The notes beneath the pieces are model-generated. The model saw nothing but the letters and a program-made list of their open reading frames with translations. It was not told where the DNA came from and did not search any database. A DNA stretch of 64,000 nucleotides from an uncultured archaeon (GTDB lineage: Archaea; CAYFZR01), in assembly GCA_964347835.1 (NCBI GenBank), contig CAYFZR010000065.1, positions 19,496 to 83,495 on the forward strand, read 5' to 3'. The translations under genes were made by a program, and so were the position numbers. Of the stretch, positions 18,768 to 61,124 are shown in pieces (the stretch's first letter is position 1; each line of letters starts with the position of its first letter).

Positions 18768-19094
18768 ATGATTAGAACAAAAGAACAAGCAAAAGAGGCT
18801 CTTAAAAAGACAGCAGATGATGAGGCATTTTACTTTTGCAATGAAAAGGGCTTCTTAAATATTAAAGCAAATAGTATTGAAGAGGCCTTGGAGAAAATAA
18901 AAAATATAGACGAGTCTTCTATAAATTATCACCTGAAGAATGGTCATTTTCAGAAGTGGATTGTCGACATATTCAGAGATGACGCATTGTCAAGGAAAGT
19001 TGACAGATTATCTAAGAAAGAAAGCATAAAAAAAGAAGATCTCGTCAATGTGTTGGAAGAAAGGATTAGATGGCTCAAAAGTAAGGTTTATTGA
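18768..19094 (+). CDS. Hypothetical protein
   Basis: 108 aa, charged and helical. Confidence 0.35.
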   Translation: MIRTKEQAKEALKKTADDEAFYFCNEKGFLNIKANSIEEALEKIKNIDESSINYHLKNGHFQKWIVDIFRDDALSRKVDRLSKKESIKKEDLVNVLEERIRWLKSKVY

Positions 19095-19534
19095 CATTTT
19101 TCGATGATCCTTTTTACAATTCCAATCAACTTCTTAGTTTTTAAGCCACGTAAAATGTTATTAAATGAGAGCGGTTCCCTTCTATATTTATTGTAGACCG
19201 TTAAAGAAGTCTTTTTTTCTTAAATTTAGTTATTTTGAAGTTAAAAGAAAAACGGACAGAATGGATTTTACAAAATATATCTTATTTTTACAAAATGAAG
19301 TTTCAAGAGTATCTTTAAGATAATTAAACGAGAACTGAGCAATTAAATAACAATTAGATAACTTCATAATCTTCGAGGAGCTTATTTTTTCCTTAAAAAT
19401 AATAAAAAATTTTACTAAAGGCTTAAATAAAAGTATTGAAAAGAGATGGAATTCAGTATTGGAATTAACTAGATATTCCGTGAGAGGAGCTTGAAACAGG
19501 ATGGTTTTAAGATTGAAAAGGAGCTAGAAATGGA

Positions 19535-20821
19535 ATGGAAAAAGCGATTGAAGAAGGTAAACCTCCGAATAGTTCATGGAAGAAGTTTATCCCATGGCAA
19601 GACATTTCTGAAGAACAGTGGTATGATTGGCGTTGGCAGATCAAAAACATGATCAGGAAGCCAGAACAACTTGTGAAGATCCTTCCTCTTCCTCGGAAAG
19701 AATTTGAGGATATCTGTAGAGTAAGTGATTCGTATCCAATGTTAATCTCGCCGTACTATTTCTCCCTCATTGACCTTGAAAACCCAAACGATCCTATACG
19801 CAAGCAGTCATTTCCTTCCATAGAAGAACTGGAAGATTTGGCTTACGCGGTAGAGGATCCTTTAGATGAAGAAGAAGACCAATCAGTTCCCGGACTCACC
19901 CACCGTTATCCTGACAGAGTCCTTCTAACGCTCACTAACTTTTGCACCACTTACTGTCGTCATTGCACAAGAAAACGTATTCATGGAAAGAGCAAAGGCA
20001 CCTTATCCTCTTACTGTTTAGACAGAGTTTTAGATTATCTTCAGAAACACGAGGAAATCCGTGATATCGTAGTTTCTGGCGGTGACCCACTTGCATTACC
20101 AAATCGTATACTTGAGAAAATACTTAAGGGTCTCCAAGACATTTCCCACTTAGAGATGATTAGGATAGGCACAAGAGTGCCTGTTACCCTACCAATGCGC
20201 CTTTATGATCAAGATTTACTCAGTCTACTAGAAAATTTCGAGAATCTATGGGTTAATACTCACTTCAACCATCCTAGAGAAATAACTATTGAGGCTGTTC
20301 AGGCGGTCAGGAATTTATTAAAGCTTGGAATACCCGTAAACAATCAGACAGTCCTTCTTAATGGAATTAACGACTCAGTAGAAATTATGCGAGAACTTAT
20401 GCTATCTTTGTTGAAAATCAGGGTAAGACCGTATTATCTTTTCCACTGCGATCCCTCAAAGGGAGTATCCCATTTCAGAACTAGCGTTTGGAAAGGTATG
20501 GAGATTATTGAAGGATTGAGAGGACATATATCAGGTTTGGGAGTCCCTACTTATGTAATTGATGCTCCTAGAGGCGGTGGAAAGATTCCCTTAATGCCAA
20601 ATTACGTTCTTTCATATTCGGAGGATGCAATTGTTCTTCGAAACTACGAAGGGATGATAGTAAAGTACTATCCCAAAGGGAAGCCCAAAGACAGGATTTT
20701 CCATCATAATAATTACATAGGGATTATCAAACTATTAGAAGAGGATGCTGATGCTCTAATTCCTTCCGAGACTCCGAGATTGAAAAGGAGAGAGAATAAT
20801 AAGAGTAATTACAAAAAATAA
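19535..20821 (+). CDS. kamA: Lysine 2,3-aminomutase (radical SAM, KamA/AblA family)
   Basis: 428 aa. Radical-SAM motif CTTYCRHCTRK, KamA-type N-terminus (EEQWYDWRWQIKN) and a C-terminal PLP-binding region. Confidence 0.85.
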   Translation: MEKAIEEGKPPNSSWKKFIPWQDISEEQWYDWRWQIKNMIRKPEQLVKILPLPRKEFEDICRVSDSYPMLISPYYFSLIDLENPNDPIRKQSFPSIEELEDLAYAVEDPLDEEEDQSVPGLTHRYPDRVLLTLTNFCTTYCRHCTRKRIHGKSKGTLSSYCLDRVLDYLQKHEEIRDIVVSGGDPLALPNRILEKILKGLQDISHLEMIRIGTRVPVTLPMRLYDQDLLSLLENFENLWVNTHFNHPREITIEAVQAVRNLLKLGIPVNNQTVLLNGINDSVEIMRELMLSLLKIRVRPYYLFHCDPSKGVSHFRTSVWKGMEIIEGLRGHISGLGVPTYVIDAPRGGGKIPLMPNYVLSYSEDAIVLRNYEGMIVKYYPKGKPKDRIFHHNNYIGIIKLLEEDADALIPSETPRLKRRENNKSNYKK

Positions 20822-20856
20822 AAAAATGAAGGTAATTTCTTTAAAAAAATTAAGAG

Positions 20857-21888
20857 GTGATGAAATTACTCGTTGGTTTAACTTATGATTTAAAGATCGA
20901 TTATTACGAGGAAAATAATTTAAACTCCGATATTTATGAAGAATTTGATGTTGAAGAAACTATTGCAGAGATATCAAATGTTTTAGAGGGTGCAGGACAC
21001 ACAGTTCTTAGATTAGGTAGTGGAAAAAAATTTCTGGAACGCATCCAGAGGGTATCGGTAGATATAGTTTTTAATATTGCAGAGGGCTTTGGAACTCGTT
21101 CCAGAGAGGCTCACGTTCCTGCTGTACTGGAAATACTTGGAATACCCTATACAGGCTCAGATCCTCTTACTTTGGCTTTAACATTGGACAAAGAGACTGC
21201 TAAGCGAGTAGTAATGACAACTAGCGTTCCAACGCCTCCATTTAAAGTAATTAGAGAGATGCAAGATTTGAAGGAACTAAACCTAGATTATCCTCTCATT
21301 CCAAAGTTACTCTACCAGGGCTCGAGCATTGGTTTAAGAAAAACTTCCAAAGTCAATAACTTTGAAGAATTAGAAGAAAGAGTTGCCTGGCTTCTACTAA
21401 CATATCAGGAACCTGTGATAGTGGAAGAATTCATTGAGGGGAGGGAATTTACCGTTGGAGTATTAGGTAATAACCAAAATGCGTATGTCTTGGGAATCAT
21501 GGAGATATCTCCAAAAAAAGGAAAGAGGCAAGATTTCATTTATTCCCTAGAGTCAAAGAGGAATTGGAAAGAATTGAATTACACTGTGAATCCTTCCCTT
21601 GAAAAATCCTTGGAAGAAAGGATAAGACAGGTAGCATTGACTGTTCATAGGGTTTTGGGCTGCAGAGATGTTTCTAGAATAGATTTCAGGGTTGACTCGG
21701 AAAAAAAACCTTACTTTTTGGAGGTAAACCCACTTCCCGGATTGAATCCTAACTTTAGTGATCTTCCATTGATCGCGAGTGGAGTTGGCATGGAATACAA
21801 AGACCTTGTTTACTGTATTTTTGAAAATGCGCTACAACGTTACGGTATGATCTTACATGAATCGAAGAGTAGGTATAATCTACAATAA
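20857..21888 (+). CDS. ATP-grasp enzyme, D-alanine--D-alanine ligase-like (paralog 1)
   Basis: 343 aa. Ddl-type motifs GIPYTGS, EEFIEGREFTVGV, SRIDFRVD and YFLEVNPLPG. Confidence 0.8.
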   Translation: MMKLLVGLTYDLKIDYYEENNLNSDIYEEFDVEETIAEISNVLEGAGHTVLRLGSGKKFLERIQRVSVDIVFNIAEGFGTRSREAHVPAVLEILGIPYTGSDPLTLALTLDKETAKRVVMTTSVPTPPFKVIREMQDLKELNLDYPLIPKLLYQGSSIGLRKTSKVNNFEELEERVAWLLLTYQEPVIVEEFIEGREFTVGVLGNNQNAYVLGIMEISPKKGKRQDFIYSLESKRNWKELNYTVNPSLEKSLEERIRQVALTVHRVLGCRDVSRIDFRVDSEKKPYFLEVNPLPGLNPNFSDLPLIASGVGMEYKDLVYCIFENALQRYGMILHESKSRYNLQ

Positions 21889-22849
21889 GGTCTCTGATGA
21901 TGATAGACCTGATAGAAAGGGAATTTTAAGAGCAGTTGACTCTGTAAAGACAGTTCTAAAGGAGATTGGATATCCTTACAGCCTTTATGGCTTAGATGGA
22001 GATTTGAAACACTTCGTAAGGGAAATTGAATTTATTAAGCCCGACGTAATCATTAATTTATGCGAAGACTTCGAGGGAAAGAGCGAAGGCGAGATTTTCA
22101 TAGCTTCTTTACTCGAAGAAATGGGGATGAGTTACACGGGTTCTCCTCCTAAAGTTCTTAAAAATGCCTTGTACAAACCCATAGCCAAGAAAATTTTTGT
22201 TAAGAGCAGTATTCCCACCCCAAGATGGAGAGTTTTCGGAAAAAAACCTATAAAAGAAAAAGATCTTAGTTTTCCGGTCATAATTAAGCCAAAAAAAGAA
22301 GATGGAAGCATAGGCATAGATAAAGAGAGCGTGGTTGACTCCATTGAATCCCTAAAAAGAAAATCAAAGGAGCTCATTAAATATTTCGGCACCAATCTGA
22401 TGATTGAAGATTATATAGACGGACGTGAATTTAACGCAGCCTTTTTTGATGGTGAAATTCTGGCAATTGGAGAAATAGAATTTGATATAGAGCCAAGAAT
22501 CGTTGGATACGATGCTAAATGGAAAGAAGGCTCTGAAGAAGATCTAAAAACAAGAGCAAAATATCCTGCGAATTTGAATACTAAGGAAGAAGAAAGGATA
22601 AAAGCTGTGGCTCTGAAGGCCCTTAAAGTCCTTCAAATTAGAGATTATGGAAGAGTAGATTTGAGGATGGACGAAGAAGGAAATATTTTTGTTTTGGAAG
22701 TAAACCCAAATCCCGATATATCTCCAGGCTCAGGATTTATAAAAGCTCTCGAAGTTTCCGGATTTTCTTACAGAGATTTTATCCAAAGATTAATAGAGAT
22801 AACTCTTAGGAGAACTGAAAATGAGAATCAGAACTCTCCAAAGCAATGA
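21857..22849 (+). CDS. ATP-grasp enzyme, D-alanine--D-alanine ligase-like (paralog 2)
   Basis: 330 aa. Motifs MSYTGS, EDYIDGREFNAAF, GRVDLRMD and FVLEVNPNPD. Overlaps the upstream gene by 32 nt. Confidence 0.8.
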   Translation: MNRRVGIIYNKVSDDDRPDRKGILRAVDSVKTVLKEIGYPYSLYGLDGDLKHFVREIEFIKPDVIINLCEDFEGKSEGEIFIASLLEEMGMSYTGSPPKVLKNALYKPIAKKIFVKSSIPTPRWRVFGKKPIKEKDLSFPVIIKPKKEDGSIGIDKESVVDSIESLKRKSKELIKYFGTNLMIEDYIDGREFNAAFFDGEILAIGEIEFDIEPRIVGYDAKWKEGSEEDLKTRAKYPANLNTKEEERIKAVALKALKVLQIRDYGRVDLRMDEEGNIFVLEVNPNPDISPGSGFIKALEVSGFSYRDFIQRLIEITLRRTENENQNSPKQ

Positions 22850-23306
22850 AAAATACGAGATTGAGAGTTTGATCATAAAAACTGGGGTTTTTAAACCTAA
22901 TGAGATTCAAGTAGCCTTAGAAGTCTTAGATCGGTCTCTTAAAGGAGATCTTTCTTACCAAATAGAAGTGATGGAAAACGATGATGGTCAGATTTTGGGA
23001 TTTATATGTTTCGGACTTAATCCTATGTGCGATGCTGTTTTTGAGCTGTATTGGATAGCAGTGGATCCAGAAAATCAGGGCAAAGGCATAGGACACTCTC
23101 TTTTATATAATCTCGAAAAGAAAGTTATGGAATTAAATGGAAGAATGATCGTAATAGAAACGTCTTCGAGACCCGAATACAAAAATGCTAGAGAATTTTA
23201 TGAAGATTTAGGGTACGAAATTATTTGTAAATTTCCAAATTTTTATGCTCCGGGGGACGATAAAATAGTGTATGCAAAAGTTTTAAACCAAAAAGTTTTG
23301 AATTAA
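22821..23306 (+). CDS. GNAT-family N-acetyltransferase
   Basis: 161 aa. Acetyl-CoA binding motif A (NQGKGIGHSLL). Overlaps the upstream ATP-grasp gene by 29 nt. Confidence 0.8.
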   Translation: MRIRTLQSNEKYEIESLIIKTGVFKPNEIQVALEVLDRSLKGDLSYQIEVMENDDGQILGFICFGLNPMCDAVFELYWIAVDPENQGKGIGHSLLYNLEKKVMELNGRMIVIETSSRPEYKNAREFYEDLGYEIICKFPNFYAPGDDKIVYAKVLNQKVLN

Positions 23307-23380
23307 ACATCTTCTTCCCCCGTATTATTTAACCTTTTTTCGTTTAGGCTATAATTCTATGTCTCTACAGCAAAAAACCA

Positions 23381-25852
23381 CTAAGCGTATCTATATTCCA
23401 AGAATCTTCTCAAGAATATTTCAAAGAAAAATAAGAAAAGCGCTGCCTTCACTAGTATCTCCCAAATATTTTCCATCTCTGTTTGATATTGTTTTGTTTC
23501 TTTTATATCTTTTAACAGATCTTGTTTTAAAGAGTCTATTTCGTTTGAATCGTAATATTTTCCTCCTGTAACTGAACAAATCTTTTTTAGTGTCTCTGTA
23601 TCAGGCTCAAGTTCTCTTATCTCTACAGGATAGTTAATGGTCATTCCTCCCTCATCTGAATACTCTTTGTTTCCGTAAGCCTTAAACAAAAAAACTCCTG
23701 TATGATTTGATCTTAAGGAAGATTGATACAGGTTAAGATCGATTTGCTCTACTTTCAAAGCCTTTTTCTCTGTTGTTTCGTACAATTCAACCTCTTTCAT
23801 CGGAAAGGAAGTCACTATATTTAATATCATGTTTTCACCTAATTCTGAGTTTCTGGCAATAATTTTAATCGGTTTTCTCCATTCTAAATCTCCTACTACC
23901 CAGTTGACTATGTTCTTCATTAATTTAGGATGATCTTTCCATGCTACAAAAGGATAGCCCCATGAATTGCCGTTGTCTGTAGTGTAAGAGGCGACTCTTC
24001 CTAATCCATAATGCCAGACGGTAAGAATCATGTTCATATCATCAGTAGCAATCAAAGATTGTGCTCCTGCTTTTTTACTCACCAAATTAAGTCCACTAAC
24101 ACTGGAAGAAATCTCGATGTCTCTGGTTATGAAGTGTTCTTCATCCAGGATCTGTAAGGAGTAGTGTTCTTTTCTTTCTTCCTCTTTCTTCCCGAAGAGG
24201 AAACTAAGTCTCTGAACGGCTGTGGGTCTGAAGTATTCTCCTCCTGTTTTTCTTGCCAAAGTTTGCATGAAGGGTTCATAGGTATCGCTGCCTACACCAA
24301 CCGTATAAATTGTGTTTCCGGAAGTTTCTGCATACTGAACAGCCTCCTCTGGAAATGCGGTAAGACCGTCGGATATCAAAACTATGTATTTCTTTCCCGC
24401 AAAACCAGAAAGTAATTGATTTGCTCTTATCAATGCGGGTGTTATGTAAGTTCCTTCGCCAGAGCTTAATCTAGATACTTTCTCCGTTAGATCCTCCATA
24501 TCTGTGACAAGAGAGAACTCTTTTATTAGGTATGGATCCACATCAAAAGCCAAAACACCAACGTAATCTCCTGGATCAAGATCATTTATTAGATTTATTG
24601 TAATTGCCTTCTCGAGATCTAATTTCGATGTTCCTCCAAAGGCTTGTCCTGTGCTACCGGAAATGTCTAAAACAAAGATGATTCCTAACTTTTCTTTCCT
24701 CTGCTTAGGCTCAGGAGATGATGTAACTGGCAATATCTTTTCAAAGGAACTTTTATAGTAAGAGCCATAATCAAAGGAATTATCTCCGCCAATTACCAAT
24801 AATCCTCTGCCTTCTCTTACATAACCCCTTAATTCGTTTATCGTCGAATGTGAAATTCGATTAACGGGAATATTATCAAGTATAATTGCATCGTATTTAT
24901 TTAAATCATCAATAGATGTACTAGAGGTCTTAGTTAAAATATAATCTTTCCCAATTTCACCTATAATATAATTTGAACTCTCTGAAGAAATGTAAATTAT
25001 TTTTGGTCTCTCAACAATCTCTAAAGACGCGTATCTTACATTGTTATACGGAAAGTAATCGTTTTTAGGATCTATGATTGCTTTTATTACATAGAATCCT
25101 TCTTCGCTAGTTTTGTACGAATACTCGATTATTTCTGTCTCTTTTTCTTGAATTTTATGGGTATCATATATCAATTTATCATCTATAAACAATTTGAAGT
25201 CATATTCAGCCGTTAAATTTCCAAAATTTTTTACGTGTACTTCTATGTCAAAAGAACTTCCTGGATAACTCTTTTCGGGTACTATTAATTCTTCTACTGC
25301 TACCTCATTCCTAACGTTAGACACTCCAAGAGCATAAATGCCAATGTCCCTCTCTTTCGCAATCATGCTCGCTTCAATTGGATCTTTGCCGTAATTATTT
25401 TGACCATCCGACACAAGCAGGATCTTTCCTGCTTCCATCTTTGATATTGTCTCTTGGATCGTGTTCCCGATAGAAGTCCTGTACTCATGGGAAAAGGGTA
25501 TTAATTTGACACTGTCCTTACCGATCTTCTCTCCAAAGAAATTATATAAATTCTTTGTCTGGTTATTGAAATTATACAACTCCATACTCCTCGATTCATC
25601 CAGCAGAATATAGATGGTAGGATTTTCTACAATAGTCCTTTCAAAAGAGTATATTCCTATGATAGACAAAATTACTAGTGTAAGTACTATAATTCTTAAA
25701 AAAAAAATTAAAAACCTCTTATTTCCTAAAAAAGCCTTATCAGATCTCTGTAATAAGTAGTAATATAGGATCGCTAAGGGTACAAGCAACAACAACCAAG
25801 GTTTACTTCCTATGAAGATACTCATCTCAAATTCTCCGTATAATACATCCAT
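23381..25852 (-). CDS. BatA-like membrane-anchored von Willebrand factor A (VWA) domain protein
   Basis: 823 aa. N-terminal TM helices, VWA MIDAS motif (IIFVLDISGSTGQ) and a large C-terminal extension. Last gene of the MoxR/DUF58/VWA operon. Confidence 0.75.
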   Translation of the reverse strand: MDVLYGEFEMSIFIGSKPWLLLLVPLAILYYYLLQRSDKAFLGNKRFLIFFLRIIVLTLVILSIIGIYSFERTIVENPTIYILLDESRSMELYNFNNQTKNLYNFFGEKIGKDSVKLIPFSHEYRTSIGNTIQETISKMEAGKILLVSDGQNNYGKDPIEASMIAKERDIGIYALGVSNVRNEVAVEELIVPEKSYPGSSFDIEVHVKNFGNLTAEYDFKLFIDDKLIYDTHKIQEKETEIIEYSYKTSEEGFYVIKAIIDPKNDYFPYNNVRYASLEIVERPKIIYISSESSNYIIGEIGKDYILTKTSSTSIDDLNKYDAIILDNIPVNRISHSTINELRGYVREGRGLLVIGGDNSFDYGSYYKSSFEKILPVTSSPEPKQRKEKLGIIFVLDISGSTGQAFGGTSKLDLEKAITINLINDLDPGDYVGVLAFDVDPYLIKEFSLVTDMEDLTEKVSRLSSGEGTYITPALIRANQLLSGFAGKKYIVLISDGLTAFPEEAVQYAETSGNTIYTVGVGSDTYEPFMQTLARKTGGEYFRPTAVQRLSFLFGKKEEERKEHYSLQILDEEHFITRDIEISSSVSGLNLVSKKAGAQSLIATDDMNMILTVWHYGLGRVASYTTDNGNSWGYPFVAWKDHPKLMKNIVNWVVGDLEWRKPIKIIARNSELGENMILNIVTSFPMKEVELYETTEKKALKVEQIDLNLYQSSLRSNHTGVFLFKAYGNKEYSDEGGMTINYPVEIRELEPDTETLKKICSVTGGKYYDSNEIDSLKQDLLKDIKETKQYQTEMENIWEILVKAALFLFFFEIFLRRFLEYRYA

Positions 25853-27741
25853 TCAATAAGTAGGAATAGCATCACAAAAGAAAGTATGAAAGGATACCAA
25901 TTTCTTTTGTTCTCAGTCAAAGTAACATATTCCGGTTTTTGAATCAATTTATCGTCTGATACAGTTTGTTTAAACGCAATATCCGATTCTTTTTCATTCA
26001 GGAGATTAACCGCGAGATATTCTCTCAAATTATTATGCTCAATTGTATATATGCCAATATGCTCTAAAGGGAATGGTGCAGAAGGTTCTAGGGAAAAGGC
26101 TTTCCCGTTTGGATCGGTTATGCGAACTTTTGAGTTCGCGGTAATTATTGAACCAGTTAGAATATTCTTCTCAGGGATGATTCCTTGATTCTTGCTGCTC
26201 CACTCTAGGGCATGATACCAATATACCGGAAATGAAGGATCATACTGAAAATTGGTCGTTTTATCTGGATAGAAACTCAAGAAAACTACTTTACCACCCG
26301 AAATTCTTAATGAAATGAGAGAATTTCTATCTAATGATTCTGCTATTGTTAATGAGCCATTTTTTGGATTATTGCTAACGTATCTTTCAACAAAAACATT
26401 CTTGAACGAAGTATCCTTTAGTATTGAGTGTTCGCCTACCGGTATGACGTCGGTTTTTTCTTTTACAATGCTTTGAAGATTTACTGGCAATACCTCTTTG
26501 ATCAAACTTAAGGCGCGGAGATCACTTCCAAGGACTATTAAACCGCCGCCTCTTTTTACATAACCGCTGAGATCTTTATCAATTCCAGGTAAAAGATGAT
26601 CATGAGGTACGTCCCCGAAGATTATGACGTCAAAATCATCTAATTTTGAAGGTATCACTGGTGGTTGTGCTAAATCTAATTTTATATTCGGTAGAGATTC
26701 TAATGCCAACCTTAAATAAGGAGGTGCTTCTTTTCTTTCTATGAGTAATACTTTATGCATCCTTATCTCAGGTAATATGCCAAAAGCAACATTATCCGTT
26801 TCTAAATCGTCTTTTGCATCGATTGAAAATCTTAGGGTGTGAACACCGAGTGAAGTAGAACCAGTATAAGTAATTGATTTTGCCTCCTTAGAAGACAAAA
26901 AAATCTTTTCCGAGTGAATTAGTTTTCCATCCAAGTATATATTAGCCTTTAATTCTTCTGATTTTTCTTTGTAGTTTTTTATTCTTAAAAATGTGTAGAA
27001 TACATTCAAATTATTTGTATCTCTCGTTACAGTTGCGCCGACTATGCCAACATTCTCTCCCCTATTATTGATATCTACAAAGGAGGTGTCTATGCCGTTA
27101 GCCCTCAATAAGTTTGTTGCATCTTCGACAGGATAACCTAGTTGACTGTAAGAAATGTCCGATAGTATGTATACAGTTTTTTTCCCTTCTTTGCCCTCTA
27201 ATATAGTATTTGCAAGCAAAATCGCATCTCCGATATTTGTCTTAGTAGATTTGCACTCGAGAGAATTAACAGTATTTTTGATATCTTTATAATTATCTGT
27301 AGGCTGAACTATTAATTCTGGAGTATTTTTAGCAAATATTATACCAATATTCCCATCTATGGAGTCTAAAAGAGAAAATAATAATTTTTTTGCCTTGTCA
27401 AATCTTTTCTCCCCAAAATCCTTTGCATTCATGCTTGCAGAAGCATCTATGATAAATATTACTTCGTCTAATTTTTTTTTTGCTCCGATTGTATATGGAT
27501 TAGCCAGCGATAGTACCAATAGACCTAATATAAAGAGTTGAAGAAGTAAAAGGGGTAGTTGGGTTATCCTTTTTATTGAAAGTTTTTTCTCCCTCTCCTT
27601 TATACCCTTTAGGAAGAACATGAGCGTGGAGAAACTTTCCTTCTTGGTTTTTTGCCATATCAAATAAAGTATTACTACAGGAATCCAAATTAATAAAAAA
27701 ATCAGGGCATTGGGATTTGCGATATCAGCCATGAGAAGCAC
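25822..27741 (-). CDS. VWA-domain membrane protein (BatB-like)
   Basis: 639 aa. N-terminal TM helices, MIDAS motif (VIFIIDASASM) and a C-terminal TM anchor. Confidence 0.7.
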   Translation of the reverse strand: MLLMADIANPNALIFLLIWIPVVILYLIWQKTKKESFSTLMFFLKGIKEREKKLSIKRITQLPLLLLQLFILGLLVLSLANPYTIGAKKKLDEVIFIIDASASMNAKDFGEKRFDKAKKLLFSLLDSIDGNIGIIFAKNTPELIVQPTDNYKDIKNTVNSLECKSTKTNIGDAILLANTILEGKEGKKTVYILSDISYSQLGYPVEDATNLLRANGIDTSFVDINNRGENVGIVGATVTRDTNNLNVFYTFLRIKNYKEKSEELKANIYLDGKLIHSEKIFLSSKEAKSITYTGSTSLGVHTLRFSIDAKDDLETDNVAFGILPEIRMHKVLLIERKEAPPYLRLALESLPNIKLDLAQPPVIPSKLDDFDVIIFGDVPHDHLLPGIDKDLSGYVKRGGGLIVLGSDLRALSLIKEVLPVNLQSIVKEKTDVIPVGEHSILKDTSFKNVFVERYVSNNPKNGSLTIAESLDRNSLISLRISGGKVVFLSFYPDKTTNFQYDPSFPVYWYHALEWSSKNQGIIPEKNILTGSIITANSKVRITDPNGKAFSLEPSAPFPLEHIGIYTIEHNNLREYLAVNLLNEKESDIAFKQTVSDDKLIQKPEYVTLTENKRNWYPFILSFVMLFLLIEWMYYTENLR

Positions 27742-28573
27742 CCAAGAATTCTAAAAAGACGTCATGAATAGGTTGATCCGTTGTTGTAAGGAAGTAATCT
27801 GCGTTAACGTCCCTGCAGAATCTATTTATTGATCGAATGTGTCTCTCCACTTCTTTGGAATATCTATCAATTGCTTTTCTTGTTAATGATATCCTTTGTC
27901 TTTCATGGGTCTCGAGATCTAAAATTTCGTAGTCTCCCTTAAAAGGTAAAAATATCTCTCCTTTATCTAAAATTTGAAATAAGATTATATCATTTCCTTT
28001 AGCCGCTAGTTTGTAAAGAGACCACCTTATAGTCTCTAAATCCGAGAGAAGATCGGATATTAGGATTATGAGCCTCTTTCCTTGGGTAATCTGCATATAT
28101 TCTTTAACAACCTTCTTTAAATCCGTCGTTCCTCGGGATTCTATCTTTTCCAACGCGCTTAGTATTCTTATGAACTGCCTTCTACCTCTTCTAGAATGTA
28201 TTCTTGTGTTTAAATGATCGGAAAAGGTGAATAAACCTACTCTATCGTTATTTTGTGCCACAAGATAAGAAAAACCTGCTGCAGATTTTGTTGCATAATC
28301 TAATTTCGATACAGAATCAGAAGAGTAAAGCATGCTATTGCTCGTGTCCAATAATACATGGGCAATGATTTCTCTTTCTTCTTCATATCTCTTCACGTGT
28401 AATTTTTCAGTTCTGGCAAAAATCTTCCAATCAACAGTCTTGTAGTCGTCTCCCGGCGAATATTCTCTATAGTCGACTATTTCCAACCCTTTTCCCTTTA
28501 GTTTTGATCTATGTTCTCCAGAATAAGCAGTAATCATCTTCTTTTTAACCATTAAGTTTAATTTTTTAAGCAT
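27725..28573 (-). CDS. DUF58 protein (MoxR-associated)
   Basis: 282 aa with the hallmark DUF58 motif DYREYSPGDDYKTVDWK. Confidence 0.8.
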   Translation of the reverse strand: MLKKLNLMVKKKMITAYSGEHRSKLKGKGLEIVDYREYSPGDDYKTVDWKIFARTEKLHVKRYEEEREIIAHVLLDTSNSMLYSSDSVSKLDYATKSAAGFSYLVAQNNDRVGLFTFSDHLNTRIHSRRGRRQFIRILSALEKIESRGTTDLKKVVKEYMQITQGKRLIILISDLLSDLETIRWSLYKLAAKGNDIILFQILDKGEIFLPFKGDYEILDLETHERQRISLTRKAIDRYSKEVERHIRSINRFCRDVNADYFLTTTDQPIHDVFLEFLGASHG

Positions 28574-28603
28574 TTTATAAAAACTAGGATCGTATAAACT
28601 CAG

Positions 28604-29566
28604 TTATGACACCTCTTCAATAATAGAGTTTATAACCCCGTCAGTTGAGGTTCCTTGCGCCTCAGCCTCGAAATTTAATATCAGTCTGTGTCTTAGCACA
28701 GGGAATATCATCTTTTTTATGTCCTCTCCGCTTACATAGGTTCTTCCTTGAATTAGGGCTCTTGCTTTGGAGGCTAAAATTAAGGAAATTGAAGCTCTTG
28801 GGGAGGCACCATATTCGATATATTTTTTCGCTACATTGCTTGCATTGTTAGAATTAGGTCTTGTAGCGGCGACTAGGGAAACTGCATATTCTTCTATGTC
28901 GCCTGCTATTGGTATCATTCTCACCAATTTTTGCAGTTCGATCAAGTCATTCCTACCCAATATCTTTCTTACTGTCGGCTCTTGACCCTTCGTATAGAGT
29001 CTAACTATATCCATCTCCTCTTCGCGCTCGGGATAGTCGATTAGAATCATTTGCAAGAACCTGTCTAACTGCGCTTCAGGCAGAGGGTAGGTTCCTTCCA
29101 TCTCAATAGGATTTTGTGTAGCCAAGACCAAAAATGGGGATGGTAGCTTAAATGTAGTTTTTCCTACGGTTACTTGTCTTTCTTGCATACACTCAAGTAG
29201 AGCGCTCTGAGATTTTGGCGTAGCCCGATTAATTTCATCAGCAAGGACGATATTCGTAAAAATCGGACCCTCAGAAAAAACAAACTTTTTTGTTTTGGTT
29301 ATTTTGTCTTCCTCTATTAAGTATGTTCCTGTGATATCCGAAGGCATTACATCAGGAGTACATTGTATCCTGCTAAATTCTAAGTCTAATACTTTTGAGA
29401 AGATTCTTATCATCATTGTTTTCCCCAGACCTGGTAATCCTTGGAGAAGCGCATGGTTGTCAGAAAGTAAGGTTATGAGCAATTGTTCGACTACCTCTTC
29501 TTGCCCTACGATTGCTTTAGATGCCTCCTTCTTTATCCCATCGAAGATTTCACGAGAGACTCTCAT
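28604..29566 (-). CDS. MoxR-family AAA+ ATPase
   Basis: 320 aa. Walker A (GLPGLGKT), Walker B/sensor region (VLADEINRATPKSQSALLECMQERQVTV). Confidence 0.9.
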   Translation of the reverse strand: MRVSREIFDGIKKEASKAIVGQEEVVEQLLITLLSDNHALLQGLPGLGKTMMIRIFSKVLDLEFSRIQCTPDVMPSDITGTYLIEEDKITKTKKFVFSEGPIFTNIVLADEINRATPKSQSALLECMQERQVTVGKTTFKLPSPFLVLATQNPIEMEGTYPLPEAQLDRFLQMILIDYPEREEEMDIVRLYTKGQEPTVRKILGRNDLIELQKLVRMIPIAGDIEEYAVSLVAATRPNSNNASNVAKKYIEYGASPRASISLILASKARALIQGRTYVSGEDIKKMIFPVLRHRLILNFEAEAQGTSTDGVINSIIEEVS

Positions 29567-30501
29567 TACTTCTCTACCTCTGCCAATTTCTCAAAGTATC
29601 TTTCGGCGATTTCTTTGTACTCGAAAACAATCTCCTCGCTATAGTACCTAGACGGTTCAGTCTCACCAACTTGAATATTTGTCATCTCTTTAGGACCGAA
29701 ATCTTCTTTTTCTATCCTATCTCCTCCAATTTCAGTGCCTTCTCCTCTTTTAATCTCAACTTTCACTTCTTCACCTTCTAGGGGCGCCCTGCTCTCTTCT
29801 CCGAATATATTTTCTCTTTGGCTATAAGTTCCGATTTTGCCTTCGCCTACGATTCCTTTTTCTCCAGTAGTTAGACCCAAGCCAGACAATATGTTATTGC
29901 ACGCTTTTCCTACCTTTGATAAAAGTCCAGTACTGATACTACCTTGATCTTCACCTAAGCCGGGCGCATTTGAATCGAAAACTCCCTTTTTCTGTAAAAT
30001 TGTTCCGTAACCAAGAACTTCAATCTCAAGATACTTGGGAGTGAAAATAAGGAGGATCAGTGCTACCAAACAAAGTATCAAAAAAACCCTCACAAATACT
30101 TTATTCATATCCACCAAGAGATTAAAGTCAAAATTGTCCAAGGATGTTTGCACATCTATGATTAATCTATTGACAAAATGATTTTCTTTCCATTCTTTGG
30201 CGTTGTCGTGGGCTGTTCTCAACTTTTCGCTTAACTCTGAGAAGTTTTCTTCGATCAATAATAAAAAGTTAATAGATCTATTTTTAAGTCTCTTAACGTA
30301 CAAGAAAATACCTGTAATAGTAAGGAAAAGAAATATAATATGAAATTCGTTAAAATTCAGCCTCGAAAGGAGAATAATAATGGAAAGCACGAGAAATATA
30401 ATGACGGCATCTAATATACTTTCATAAAAAATTATTTTTGCATAATCCTCTCTCATTAATTCTACTCTCTTAACGAGTTTGCTTCCAGCGTCCATGATCA
30501 T
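29566..30501 (-). CDS. Membrane protein, first gene of the MoxR/DUF58/VWA operon
   Basis: 311 aa, two to three TM segments plus a Gly/Glu-rich tail. Adjacent to moxR as in Bat-type operons. Confidence 0.4.
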   Translation of the reverse strand: MIMDAGSKLVKRVELMREDYAKIIFYESILDAVIIFLVLSIIILLSRLNFNEFHIIFLFLTITGIFLYVKRLKNRSINFLLLIEENFSELSEKLRTAHDNAKEWKENHFVNRLIIDVQTSLDNFDFNLLVDMNKVFVRVFLILCLVALILLIFTPKYLEIEVLGYGTILQKKGVFDSNAPGLGEDQGSISTGLLSKVGKACNNILSGLGLTTGEKGIVGEGKIGTYSQRENIFGEESRAPLEGEEVKVEIKRGEGTEIGGDRIEKEDFGPKEMTNIQVGETEPSRYYSEEIVFEYKEIAERYFEKLAEVEK

Positions 30502-48214: not shown

Positions 48215-50014
48215 ATGACTGAATTATCTGATAACGCTATAACGGTCTTGAGAAGAAGGTATTTGAAAAAGGATGAAGATGGAAGCGCGATTGAAACTCC
48301 AGAAGAGATGTTTAAAAGAGTTGCGAGTAATATTGCTTCTGCTGATGAATTATATGATGGAAAAGATGTAAAAAAAACAGAAGAGGATTTCTACAGGATT
48401 ATGACAAATCTTGAGTTCTTACCTAATTCTCCCACCTTGATGAATGCAGGCACAGAACTCCAACAACTTGCTGCATGCTTTGTTCTTCCGGTAGAGGATT
48501 CAATAGAAGGAATTTTTGAGACTTTAAAAAACGCAGCCCTTATACACCAAAGTGGGGGCGGAACTGGATTTTCCTTTTCGCATTTACGACCAAAAGGAGA
48601 TATAGTTAAATCAACTGGTGGAATAGCCTCTGGTCCCGTATCATTCATGAAGGTATTCGATGCTGCTACCCAAGCAATCAAACAAGGAGGAAAGCGCAGA
48701 GGAGCCAATATGGGCACATTGCGAGTAGATCATCCGGACATAATCGAATTCATAACGGTAAAAAAAGATACTAGAATTTTGACCAACTTCAACATATCTG
48801 TAGCCGTTACAGAAGAATTTATAGACGCCTTAAAAGAAGGTGAAAAATACAACTTGATTAGTCCAAGAACCAATGAAATCGTAGGAAAATTAAACGCGGA
48901 AGAAGTTTTTGATTTGATGGTAGAGATGGCTTGGAGTACTGGTGATCCCGGAATTATATTTTTAGATCGCATAAACAAGGACAATCCCACACCCCAACTC
49001 GGAGAAATGGAGTCTACAAATCCATGTGGAGAACAGCCCTTATTACCTTATGAGGCTTGCAATCTTGGATCTATAAACCTTTCCAAAATGGTAAAGAATG
49101 GAGAAATAGACTTCGAAAAATTAGGAGAGGTAGTTGACATTTCTATAAAATTTCTGGATAACGTCATCGATAAGAATGAATTCCCATTAGACAGCATTAA
49201 AGAAGTAGTAAAAGGGAACAGAAAAATTGGTCTTGGTGTCATGGGTTTCGCTGACATGCTAGTAAAACTAAGGATCCCTTACAACTCGGAGAAAGCACTT
49301 GAGATCGCTGAAAGAGTTATGAAATTTATTTCAGAGAGGGGAAAAAGAAAGTCAATGGAGATCGCGAAGGAGAGGGGTCCTTTTTCTAATTATGAAGAAA
49401 GTATCAAATATGATCCTGATATGGAAAAGGTAAGGAATTCTACAAGGACGACAGTGGCTCCTACAGGGACAATAAGCATAATAGCCGGTTGTTCGAGCGG
49501 TATAGAGCCTTTTTATGCCATTTCTTATGTGAGAAGGGTTTTGGATGATGAAAGGCTCTACGAAGTAAACCACCTTTTTGAAGAAATTGCAAAAGAGAGA
49601 GGTTTTTATAATGAAGAATTGATGGAGAAAATCGCTGAAAAGGGATCGGTCAAGGGAATGAGTGCGGTACCAGAAGATATTCAAGAACTCTTTGTTACCG
49701 CCTATGATATTTCTCCTGAGTGGCAGGTAAAAATGCAGGCAGCGTTCCAAAAATACGTTGACAATGCGGTATCAAAGACTGTGAACTTGCCGCAAGAGGC
49801 TACTAAAGACGATGTAAGAAGGATTTTCCTGCTTGCATATGAACTCGGATGTAAAGGCATAACTGTTTACAGAGACAAGAGTAAAGAGGAACAAACTCTC
49901 GCCATAGAGGAGAAAGTACCAGTTGAAGAATGTCCCGACTGCGGAGAGGAACTAAAGTTTATTGAAAGGACAGATGTCTGTATAAGATGTGGTTATACAA
50001 CCTCAGTAAGTTGA
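48215..50014 (+). CDS. nrdJ: Ribonucleotide reductase, class II (adenosylcobalamin-dependent), with C-terminal zinc ribbon
   Basis: 599 aa. Motifs NSPTLMNAG, GGGTGFSFSHLRPKGD, EACNLGSINL and C-terminal CPDCGEEL..CIRCGY. Confidence 0.85.
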   Translation: MTELSDNAITVLRRRYLKKDEDGSAIETPEEMFKRVASNIASADELYDGKDVKKTEEDFYRIMTNLEFLPNSPTLMNAGTELQQLAACFVLPVEDSIEGIFETLKNAALIHQSGGGTGFSFSHLRPKGDIVKSTGGIASGPVSFMKVFDAATQAIKQGGKRRGANMGTLRVDHPDIIEFITVKKDTRILTNFNISVAVTEEFIDALKEGEKYNLISPRTNEIVGKLNAEEVFDLMVEMAWSTGDPGIIFLDRINKDNPTPQLGEMESTNPCGEQPLLPYEACNLGSINLSKMVKNGEIDFEKLGEVVDISIKFLDNVIDKNEFPLDSIKEVVKGNRKIGLGVMGFADMLVKLRIPYNSEKALEIAERVMKFISERGKRKSMEIAKERGPFSNYEESIKYDPDMEKVRNSTRTTVAPTGTISIIAGCSSGIEPFYAISYVRRVLDDERLYEVNHLFEEIAKERGFYNEELMEKIAEKGSVKGMSAVPEDIQELFVTAYDISPEWQVKMQAAFQKYVDNAVSKTVNLPQEATKDDVRRIFLLAYELGCKGITVYRDKSKEEQTLAIEEKVPVEECPDCGEELKFIERTDVCIRCGYTTSVS

Positions 50015-50043: not shown

Positions 50044-51810
50044 TCATAATCTAAAAGAGTCCAATTCCCTCGGAGCCTCCACGCGCAAATCTGGAAGTCT
50101 ATTTTTAATCAACTTACTTAATTGAAGAATATTTTCTTCTTCTCCATGCACTAAAAATATGTTTTCGGGTTTTTTGGATAGAGAATTTATGAAATTCATT
50201 ATCTGTGGTCTGTCTGAGTGAGCGCTGAAAGTATAAGACTTTACTATCATATCCAACTTCAATTCCTTTCCATCCAATTCAATGGCTTTTTTTCCGTCTA
50301 GTATTTCTCTACCCAACGTCCCTTGAGCCTGATACCCCACGAGTACCAATAAGTTTCTCCTGTCATCATGTAGCCTTTTCAGATGATGTAAAACCGGACC
50401 TCCTTTCATCATACCTGATGTTGCGAGTATAATCGCTGGTTCAATTATCTTTTCCCTTCTTTTGGGCGTGATTGTACGGAAAATATCTGACAAAAATGGA
50501 TTATCTCTAGTTTCGTCGATTCTGCTTCTTATGCTCGACCGGAGGAAATCGGAATAGTGGGTGTATACCAAGTTAGCCTCTCTAACCATGCCGTCTATAT
50601 AGACAGGATATTTTTTTAGCGCGCCGGATCGCATGTACTCTTCCAAAACAAGCATGACCTCCTGGGACCTGCCTACTGCTGCTACAGGTATCAAAACGGT
50701 GCCTTCCCTTTCCATGGTTTCCTTTACAACTCTTACGAAGTCTGATTCTACTCCTTTTCTCGATGGATGAAGATCTTCCTTTCCGCCATACGTAGATTCT
50801 ATGATTAGGGTGTCAGCGTCGAATTTTTTTCTTGATATATCGAGTAATCTAGTCTTTCTATAACTAAAATCACCAGTATACAGCAATTTATAGTCATTGA
50901 GAGATAGATGAACTAAACTAGATCCAATAATGTGTCCTGCACTTTGTAATGTCAGTTTCACATTAGGAGATGCTATTACGCTCTTTTCATATTCAAGTGG
51001 TATTGCATGTTTTATAGAAAGTTCTATCCCTTTTTTTGAAAATAAAGGTCTAGAATTTCTTTTTGCCAATCTCAAGGTATCACTCCACAACAAATACATA
51101 ACATCCAGCGAAGGTCTGGTGCAAAATAAAGCGCCCTCAAAGCCATTTTCATATAGGTATGGAACAGCCCCACAGTGGTCTAAATGCGCATGAGAAATGA
51201 CGACAGAGTGTAGTCTATCGATTTCGAATTCGGGTAAATCGAATGATGGTAAAAGAGGCGGAGTTTGAGATGCATCAATGCCGCAATCGAGAAGAACACT
51301 ATCAGAGTTCGTATGAAATAGAAAGCACGACTTTCCTACCTGTCTGCAACCTCCAAGGAAGGATATACGCTTCCACTTTAATTCTTCTTTTTCTCTTAAC
51401 TTTTTGCCTATTTTTTTTAGACTCGCAGATCTTTCTCCGTACAGTACCTTGTTTACATTTCTGGTAGCCTGACAAAGTCTTTCGCGAGTCTCAATAATCT
51501 CAAAAACCCATCCTGTCTGTTTAACAAGGAGTTCCTTTGTCAAATTAACATTTGCCAGAAAGTAATTTAACTTAAGTTCTATAAGAACGACTCCGAAATC
51601 GGAGAAGTAGATATTTTGTATGCCCTTTGGGAATACTTTTTCCAGTAAATCCTTTACTTCATCTTTTTTTGCCCTATTTTTTTCTTCTACCCTTAATAAA
51701 ACTTCTTCTCCATGTTCCTCTTCTAATTCTTTTTTGAAATCAGGGTCAAACAGGTCATCTGTGTCAGAAGTAAAGTACACCAAATCAGTACCTAGACTTT
51801 CCACCTCCAT
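50044..51810 (-). CDS. Metallo-beta-lactamase/beta-CASP ribonuclease, aCPSF1 (FttA)-like
   Basis: 588 aa. HAHLDHCGAVPY (HxHxDH), downstream beta-CASP motifs and RMBL-like C-terminus (LVHGEE). N-terminal about 150 aa are KH-like. Confidence 0.75.
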   Translation of the reverse strand: MEVESLGTDLVYFTSDTDDLFDPDFKKELEEEHGEEVLLRVEEKNRAKKDEVKDLLEKVFPKGIQNIYFSDFGVVLIELKLNYFLANVNLTKELLVKQTGWVFEIIETRERLCQATRNVNKVLYGERSASLKKIGKKLREKEELKWKRISFLGGCRQVGKSCFLFHTNSDSVLLDCGIDASQTPPLLPSFDLPEFEIDRLHSVVISHAHLDHCGAVPYLYENGFEGALFCTRPSLDVMYLLWSDTLRLAKRNSRPLFSKKGIELSIKHAIPLEYEKSVIASPNVKLTLQSAGHIIGSSLVHLSLNDYKLLYTGDFSYRKTRLLDISRKKFDADTLIIESTYGGKEDLHPSRKGVESDFVRVVKETMEREGTVLIPVAAVGRSQEVMLVLEEYMRSGALKKYPVYIDGMVREANLVYTHYSDFLRSSIRSRIDETRDNPFLSDIFRTITPKRREKIIEPAIILATSGMMKGGPVLHHLKRLHDDRRNLLVLVGYQAQGTLGREILDGKKAIELDGKELKLDMIVKSYTFSAHSDRPQIMNFINSLSKKPENIFLVHGEEENILQLSKLIKNRLPDLRVEAPRELDSFRL

Positions 51811-59367: not shown

Positions 59368-61124
<1,757 letters not shown>

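Follow-up and report, generated by a model that had tools for sequence, protein, structure and literature searches.

A conserved aminomutase, ATP-grasp ligase and acetyltransferase module from an uncultured archaeon that may make a beta-lysine-containing peptide

The stretch of DNA analysed here (the window; 64,000 nucleotides of contig CAYFZR010000065.1 from an uncultured archaeon) contains, at positions 19535-23306, a gene cluster for a lysine 2,3-aminomutase (KamA), two ATP-grasp ligases (here called G1 and G2) and a small N-acetyltransferase of the GNAT family (Table 1). On balance, we favour the view that this module is a single biosynthetic operon that would form beta-lysine, carry out two ATP-dependent amide ligations and an N-acetylation, and so yield a small beta-lysine (pseudo)peptide. 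The initial annotation of this DNA had proposed an N-acetylated amide containing beta-lysine, and we keep this as the most economical reading, supported by the conservation of the module and by the intact enzymes. The broader proposal seems to us evenly poised: that KamA, G1 and G2, with or without the GNAT, are an unrecognised cross-domain pathway for a new class of beta-lysine peptide metabolites in many uncultured anaerobes, with Thermodesulfobacteriota, Chloroflexota, WOR-3, Dadabacteria, Bathyarchaeia and Hydrothermarchaeota-like archaea as its carriers.

The proteins of the window were assigned to families by profile searches against Pfam and NCBIfam. KamA has the Radical_SAM and LAM_C domains (Pfam) and passes the TIGR00238 model for the KamA family (342 bits, cutoff 199). 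Its top aminomutase model is the AblA equivalog (495.1 bits), followed by glutamate aminomutase (440 bits), arginine aminomutase (379 bits) and EpmB (239 bits), and it aligns end to end with the lysine 2,3-aminomutase of Clostridium subterminale (PDB entry 2A5H; E 4.6e-131). The radical S-adenosylmethionine (radical-SAM) motif CxxxCxxC reads CTTYCRHC (residues 137-144). The residues Asp293, Asp330 and Lys337 (2A5H numbering), the last of which binds pyridoxal 5'-phosphate (PLP), are present in the KamA of the window and are invariant in 68 KamA sequences from the clusters. Asp293 and Asp330 are presumably the residues that hold the epsilon-ammonium group of lysine, as in the published structure of lysine 2,3-aminomutase. 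Both are replaced in glutamate 2,3-aminomutase. The radical-SAM motif, the PLP-binding Lys, the two Asp residues and the best score to AblA thus make the formation of beta-lysine by this KamA a well supported prediction.

G1 and G2 each carry a Dala_Dala_lig_C ATP-grasp domain (PF07478; 110.6 bits for G2), with weak additional matches of the ligases to the TTL and RimK families of Pfam. They share 32% sequence identity (E 2e-38) and belong to two branches that separated long ago, in keeping with the suggestion made from the window alone that they are paralogs; both look catalytically competent from their residues. The AlphaFold2 model of G2 has a predicted local distance difference test (pLDDT) score of 92 and a Foldseek TM score of ∼0.8 to Ddl. 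Both ligases give high-confidence models with the Ddl fold, that is the three-domain ATP-grasp fold with its conserved ATP/Mg2+ residues. The closest structural neighbours are Ddl enzymes, then LysX/ArgX and RimK; the structure of PylC is distant.

We aligned 84 G1 and 66 G2 sequences with DdlB of Escherichia coli, the sequence of which was checked against PDB entry 2DLN and which supplies the numbering of the catalytic and D-Ala-binding residues. All residues for ATP, Mg2+ and the transition state, namely Lys97, Lys144, Glu180, Glu187, Lys215, Arg255, Asp257, Glu270 and Asn272, are conserved in both families. The triad that binds the first D-Ala (D-Ala1) in DdlB, Glu15-Ser150-Tyr216, reads Glu-Ser-Arg throughout the G1 family and Ala/Asp-Gly/Ala-gap throughout the G2 family, and in both families a Glu takes the place of His63. 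Invariant residues of G1 are those of an acidic cluster (Glu28, Glu29, Asp31 and Glu33), Arg83 and Asp302; in G2, Asp287 is invariant. Neither protein reaches the cutoff of any curated Ddl model; the top scores are 193 bits for G1 and 140 bits for G2, compared with a cutoff of 243 for NF002378. The alignment thus indicates that G1 and G2 are active ligases of the Ddl clade, yet not D-Ala-D-Ala ligases. We regard them as ancient and functionally distinct ligases for which the enzyme class is secure and for which we infer the substrates. Public annotations read 'ATP-grasp domain-containing protein' or 'D-alanine-D-alanine ligase'.

The acetyltransferase matches Acetyltransf_1, Acetyltransf_7 and Acetyltransf_10 in Pfam and has the acetyl-CoA motif QGKGIG. 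None of its 14 NCBIfam matches is a beta-lysine acetyltransferase; the best is RimI at 47 bits, which is under the cutoff. The closest structure, PDB entry 2R7H (E 9e-24), is an uncharacterised structural-genomics GNAT from Desulfovibrio G20. In the loci examined, this GNAT subfamily is seen only directly 3' of G2 or fused to it. The fusion is found in locus L074 (5310-6845), from a Dehalococcoidia metagenome-assembled genome (MAG), where G2 and the GNAT make up a single open reading frame (ORF) of 511 residues with Dala_Dala_lig_C at residues 142-324 and the GNAT domain at residues 366-471.

Homologues of G1 number in the thousands. Two peptide motifs specific to G1, searched for in genomes that each represent a species, occur in at least 594 species genomes, the best 80 of which are all bacterial. 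These 80 come from Clostridia MAGs, Syntrophaceae and other Thermodesulfobacteriota, Dadabacteria, WOR-3, Hydrothermae, Dehalococcoidia and other Chloroflexota, Omnitrophota and Ignavibacteriales. For the gene neighbourhoods we counted 47 non-redundant related loci with adequate flanks, from at least nine bacterial lineages. KamA lies within a few kilobases of G1 in 46 of these 47 loci and G2 in 42. The order KamA-G1-G2-GNAT, with overlapping junctions, is found in Clostridia MAGs, Dadabacteria, Chloroflexota and Hydrothermales; the order is G1, a two-component system and then KamA-G2 in Thermodesulfobacteriota, and KamA, an ORF of no assigned family and then G1-G2 in WOR-3. A few WOR-3 and Omnitrophota loci have KamA-G1 alone. 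Conservation across phyla puts the arrangement far beyond chance, and the idea in the initial annotation that the genes are one functional unit and not merely neighbours is upheld. The flanking genes vary among the lineages, from which it follows that the module is self-contained.

The initial annotation had also called for a search for kamA, ATP-grasp and GNAT genes in other archaea. Bathyarchaeia and Nezhaarchaeota have the same four parts in a rearranged order, with identities to the window proteins of 50-52% for KamA, 42-43% for G1 and 40% for G2, and with a GNAT of another subfamily. The module is nonetheless mainly bacterial and not an archaeal speciality. In a neighbour-joining tree, G1 and G2 form two old clades with congruent internal topology, and both ligases of the window nest with sequences from Clostridia MAGs, WOR-3 and Hydrothermae and not with those of other archaea. 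The congruent trees and the position of the window copies among bacterial ones point to co-evolution of the ligases and to transfer as a block; the copy in the window was thus probably acquired from bacteria by horizontal transfer. The module of a sister assembly (GCA_012974965.1; locus L001) shares 99.9% identity with that of the window. In L001 (9000-10032), a 1 nt insertion, corresponding to approximately position 21566 of the window, splits G1 into ORFs of 247 and 100 residues, which probably reflects either an error of assembly or recent pseudogenization; the copy in the window is intact.

These results bear on the possibility that the module is an ordinary osmolyte pathway to N-epsilon-acetyl-beta-lysine into which two D-Ala-D-Ala ligase genes were inserted by chance. 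KamA does score near the AblA equivalog and a GNAT is present, but the ligases accompany KamA in 46 of 47 loci across phyla and it is the GNAT that is the dispensable part. The GNAT has 161 residues, compared with ∼290 for AblB, and matched no AblB model. Neither ligase has the D-Ala1 triad or reaches any Ddl cutoff and, to our knowledge, archaea such as the host have no D-Ala-D-Ala peptidoglycan. The conservation pattern and the residue tests thus contradict a plain ablA-ablB pathway with stray Ddl genes, which we consider very unlikely.

In the small-peptide pathway that we favour, KamA would first isomerize L-lysine to beta-lysine (3,6-diaminohexanoate). G1 and G2 would then each turn a carboxylate into an acyl phosphate and join it to an amine, making two successive amide bonds, and the GNAT would cap a free amino group using acetyl-CoA. 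The product would be a small di- or tri-(pseudo)peptide that contains beta-lysine and is N-acetylated; it would probably be a metabolite or solute of the cytoplasm, and by analogy with PylB and PylC it may be an isopeptide. The presence of the parts is nested (KamA and G1 alone in some loci, G2 commonly added and this GNAT found only with G2), which suggests that G1 acts nearest to beta-lysine. The same pattern, together with the G2-GNAT fusion, favours the two successive ligation steps that had been put forward for this cluster. G1 retains, within its acidic cluster, the Glu that binds the donor amine in Ddl, and its acceptor site has an invariant Arg and an invariant Asp; these features would suit a diamino acid of cationic character and the head group of an amino acid. 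In G2 this Glu has been lost and the protein is coupled to the GNAT, which would fit an acyl donor that is N-blocked, either acetylated or peptide-linked, as in Ngg, which unites GNAT and ATP-grasp activities.

Several points weigh against this pathway. The 495.1 bits of KamA do not reach the cutoff of the AblA equivalog (525.4 bits), and Asp293 and Asp330 alone may leave beta-arginine possible. There is no GNAT near the module in Thermodesulfobacteriota and WOR-3, so that acetylation may be optional or encoded elsewhere, and the G2-GNAT fusion of L074 is a single case that could be an assembly indel. The arguments from pocket residues are drawn from the alignment to DdlB, not from the structure of a complex. 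The habitat data of the carriers do not point to osmoadaptation: many MAGs among the best 80 derive from samples of peat, soil, groundwater and freshwater lakes, and the role as a compatible solute suggested in the initial annotation finds no direct support. Lastly, one lineage has cyanophycin-degrading genes beside the module, a hint at a polymer.

Such a polymer or oligomer would be oligo- or poly-beta-lysine, or a cyanophycin-like storage polymer for which the two ligases could share out backbone and side-chain chemistry, one lengthening the backbone and the other adding beta-lysine to it. Cyanophycin synthetase uses an ATP-grasp domain. In a lineage of Clostridia MAGs (L002-L004; 8524-13002 in L002), the module is followed directly by genes for a true cyanophycinase (205 bits, cutoff 127) and a DcuC-type transporter, with two genes of the Amidohydro_1 family alongside on the opposite strand; the one that was scored encodes a beta-aspartyl peptidase (370 bits, cutoff 331). 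The link to cyanophycinase is confined to this lineage, however, and is missing from the other Clostridia MAGs and from all other phyla examined. No Mur-ligase-type domain is found in any of the four proteins (Pfam), the nearest structural relatives of the ligases are the dipeptide-forming Ddl enzymes, and an acetyl cap and a G2-GNAT fusion suit a defined small product better than a polymer. We therefore judge a polymeric product to be unlikely; the oligo-beta-lysine named in the initial annotation is possible but a weaker alternative than a small product. Upstream of the module, the same Clostridia loci carry genes for histidine ammonia-lyase and glutamyl-tRNA synthetase.

The ligases might instead modify a macromolecule with beta-lysine or a beta-lysyl peptide, added either to the C-terminus or a side chain of a protein, as RimK, LysX/LysW and TTL do, or to a component of the cell envelope. 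The weak TTL and RimK matches and the rank of LysX/ArgX and RimK as the next-best structural neighbours after Ddl are in line with this, as are two loci with KamA and G1 only (L071, 10962-11909, from an Omnitrophota MAG, and L076, 8999-9727, from an unclassified bacterial MAG), in which genes of peptidoglycan type come next: an S66 LD-carboxypeptidase and a LysM plus amidase_2 protein. A GT4 glycosyltransferase also belongs to this downstream set. On the other hand, the related loci have no conserved gene for a carrier or substrate beside the module, and the presence of the module in archaea, after apparent transfer between domains, speaks against a macromolecular target peculiar to one lineage. 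The class II aminoacyl-tRNA synthetase beside the module in Thermodesulfobacteriota is an aspartyl-tRNA synthetase and not an EpmA-like lysylase of elongation factor P. Taken together, we find attachment to a macromolecule improbable. Beta-lysylation of elongation factor P was considered as a particular case and rejected, given the identity of the neighbouring synthetase and the AblA type of KamA (495 versus 239 bits for EpmB). A carrier or precursor peptide was likewise rejected: the search for a conserved small peptide or carrier gene beside the module in the related loci gave none, and a lipoprotein confined to one lineage is the sole small ORF that is conserved. This lipoprotein, which has a lipobox signal peptide and a Pro/Ala-rich tail, is encoded just upstream of kamA in L087 (14381-14581) and in 35 other Thermodesulfobacteriota loci.

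We also considered a catabolic or detoxifying role, in which the module would handle lysine or beta-lysine compounds taken up from outside, or would acetylate a toxic antibiotic that contains beta-lysine. Lysine fermentation has beta-lysine as its first intermediate, and there are GNATs whose target is the beta-lysine of streptothricins. The annotated neighbours lack kamDE, kdd, kce and kal, however, and the flanking genes differ between lineages; ATP-consuming ligases are biosynthetic; and no resistance-type acetyltransferase model passes its cutoff and no defence system is matched. A role of this kind is highly improbable in our view.

The enzyme families of the module are familiar, but their combination and the proposed product are not, and the module is spread unusually widely for an orphan. 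G1, G2 and the GNAT are not named specifically by any curated NCBIfam or Pfam model, and no solved structure of known function explains the module. Full-text literature searches found no description of a cluster of kamA, Ddl-like and GNAT genes, although the 2009 amidoligase survey by Iyer and colleagues may mention one; the literature searched holds no characterized homologous cluster, the existence of which the initial annotation had named among the grounds for giving up its proposal. If the small-peptide pathway is correct, hundreds of anaerobic bacterial and archaeal species would make an undescribed beta-lysine-derived peptide, by a further route to beta-amino-acid peptides that is independent of the ribosome and of nonribosomal peptide synthetases (NRPSs). 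There would then be two new substrate specificities in the Ddl clade, which is usually seen as serving peptidoglycan only and whose members are routinely misannotated as 'D-alanine-D-alanine ligase', and the practice in metagenomics of reading osmoadaptation by N-epsilon-acetyl-beta-lysine from any kamA would need correction. A self-contained module of only three to four genes is directly testable by heterologous expression.

Table 1. Features of the module and its borders, in coordinates of the window.
Feature	Description	Position	Strand	Basis
kamA	KamA/AblA-type radical-SAM, PLP-dependent lysine 2,3-aminomutase; predicted to make beta-lysine	19535..20821	+	Pfam, NCBIfam, 2A5H alignment
G1	Ddl-clade ATP-grasp ligase, 342 aa; predicted first amide-forming ligase on beta-lysine	20860..21888	+	
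G2	Divergent second ATP-grasp ligase of the Ddl clade, 330 aa; predicted second ligation	21857..22849	+	PF07478, fold model
GNAT	Small N-acetyltransferase of the GNAT family, 161 aa; predicted target an amino group on an intermediate or product	22821..23306	+	Pfam
Upstream intergenic region	AT-rich, 440 nt; presumed site of the operon promoter	19095..19534	+	Sequence read
T6 run	Candidate archaeal oligo-T terminator, 29 nt past the GNAT stop	23335..23340	+	Sequence; general knowledge of archaeal termination

The ORF scan of the window gives the four coding regions with the limits of Table 1, except that the second runs from a GTG (20857-21888); the products have 428, 343 (counted from the GTG), 330 and 161 residues. 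The start of G1 is most likely the ATG at 20860 rather than this GTG, as judged from its first residues, MKLLVGLTY, which resemble the consensus of the homologues (MKLRVGITY), and from the public gene call in L001, which agrees. With this start there is a gap of 38 nt between kamA and G1, which therefore do not abut. The initial annotation had described all four genes as overlapping or abutting; this is right for the overlaps of 32 nt (G1/G2) and 29 nt (G2/GNAT) and most likely wrong for kamA/G1. A GGAG lies at 19520-23, 11 nt ahead of the ATG of kamA, and an AGGAG lies within G2, 8 nt ahead of the GNAT start. The site scan found no terminator-like site at the three gene junctions and a sole + strand match at 22933-22950, inside the GNAT ORF; its matches are no more numerous than in shuffled sequence. 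The promoter scan of the region, which covered sigma-70-type sites, did not identify the operon promoter. In Rfam only tRNAs were matched in the window and in ten related loci, with no riboswitch or other RNA control element, and PADLOC gave no match for anti-phage defence. An ORF of 108 residues (18768-19094, + strand), 440 nt upstream of kamA, has only a marginal match to DUF5752 and is not kept beside the module in other lineages. Downstream, the T6 run precedes a convergent gene that ends at 23381. This gene belongs to a string of BatA/VWA, DUF58 and MoxR-AAA genes (23381-30501, - strand) that shares the 3' intergenic region with the module; for the first gene of the string (823 residues), no Pfam match is recorded for the corresponding gene call in L001.

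The genes between G1 and kamA in Thermodesulfobacteriota encode a PAS histidine kinase, a sigma-54 response regulator and an orphan receiver; a strict regular expression for -24/-12 sigma-54 sites had no match in 36 Thermodesulfobacteriota loci. WOR-3 and Hydrothermae have a conserved ORF of 356-404 residues between kamA and G1 (L062, 6786-7856; L049, 6781-7995; also L034 and L058), which has no sequence match in Pfam, NCBIfam or the PDB and could be an extra component of the pathway.

An aCPSF1-type ribonuclease, subunit C of the A1-ATPase and an F420-dependent methylene-tetrahydromethanopterin (methylene-H4MPT) reductase encoded in the window mark the host as archaeal. The aCPSF1-like beta-CASP ribonuclease (50044-51810, - strand) has only 588 residues and lacks PF17214, which is present in almost every other match. 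It scores 565 against the aCPSF1 cutoff of 580, has ∼40% identity to canonical aCPSF1 and may be a divergent paralogue; its nearest relative, with 85% identity, comes from a 'Candidatus Hydrother...' MAG, most likely an archaeon of the Hydrothermarchaeota type. The reductase, Mer (59368-60387, - strand; 514 bits), a B12-dependent class II ribonucleotide reductase (48215-50014, + strand) and a ClC chloride channel with CBS domains (476-2338, + strand) fit an anaerobic, H4MPT-using archaeon.

Compared with the Ddl/VanA family, G1 and G2 have the same three-domain ATP-grasp fold and keep the ATP/Mg2+ residues, but the D-Ala1 triad is altered in G1 and lost in G2, His63 has become Glu and there are new invariant charged residues. 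Cyanophycin synthetase (CphA) resembles the module in forming amide bonds with a basic amino acid by means of ATP-grasp chemistry, and one lineage has cyanophycinase and isoaspartyl dipeptidase genes adjoining the module; the module differs in having neither a Mur-ligase domain nor a multidomain synthetase, and the link to degradative genes is confined to that lineage. In the synthesis of the dipeptide osmolyte N-acetylglutaminylglutamine amide (NAGGN), Ngg both N-acetylates and ligates, without a ribosome or an NRPS (PMC8070244). The combination of a GNAT with ATP-grasp-type ligation is common to Ngg/AsnO and the module, and is a fusion in Ngg, which the G2-GNAT fusion of L074 parallels by analogy only. 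Unlike Ngg/AsnO, the module has a different ligase subfamily, no AsnO amidotransferase and a substrate that comes from an aminomutase.

In pyrrolysine synthesis the radical-SAM lysine mutase PylB acts first, giving a non-proteinogenic diamino acid, and the ATP-grasp ligase PylC then couples this diamino acid to an amine at the expense of ATP (PMC8225853). The logic of a radical-SAM rearrangement of lysine followed by ATP-grasp coupling is the same in the module, although PylC is only a distant structural neighbour of the ligases, and a close relationship to PylC with PylB and PylD as partners was not found. The two-gene kamA-ablB pathway is well known; its ablB has 870 bp and encodes ∼290 residues (PMC11337218). 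AblA/AblB (KamA/YodP) and the module have in common a lysine 2,3-aminomutase of the same subfamily, an acetyl-CoA-dependent GNAT and an operon organization. The differences are that the module has two ATP-grasp ligases between the aminomutase and the GNAT, that these ligases are more conserved than the GNAT, and that the GNAT is of a different and much smaller subfamily (161 versus ∼290 residues). The ligases were thus correctly placed outside ablA-ablB and kamA-yodP in the initial annotation, and the GNAT is not of the AblB type either. With two ligases inserted relative to AblA/AblB, the product of the module must hold additional amide bonds.

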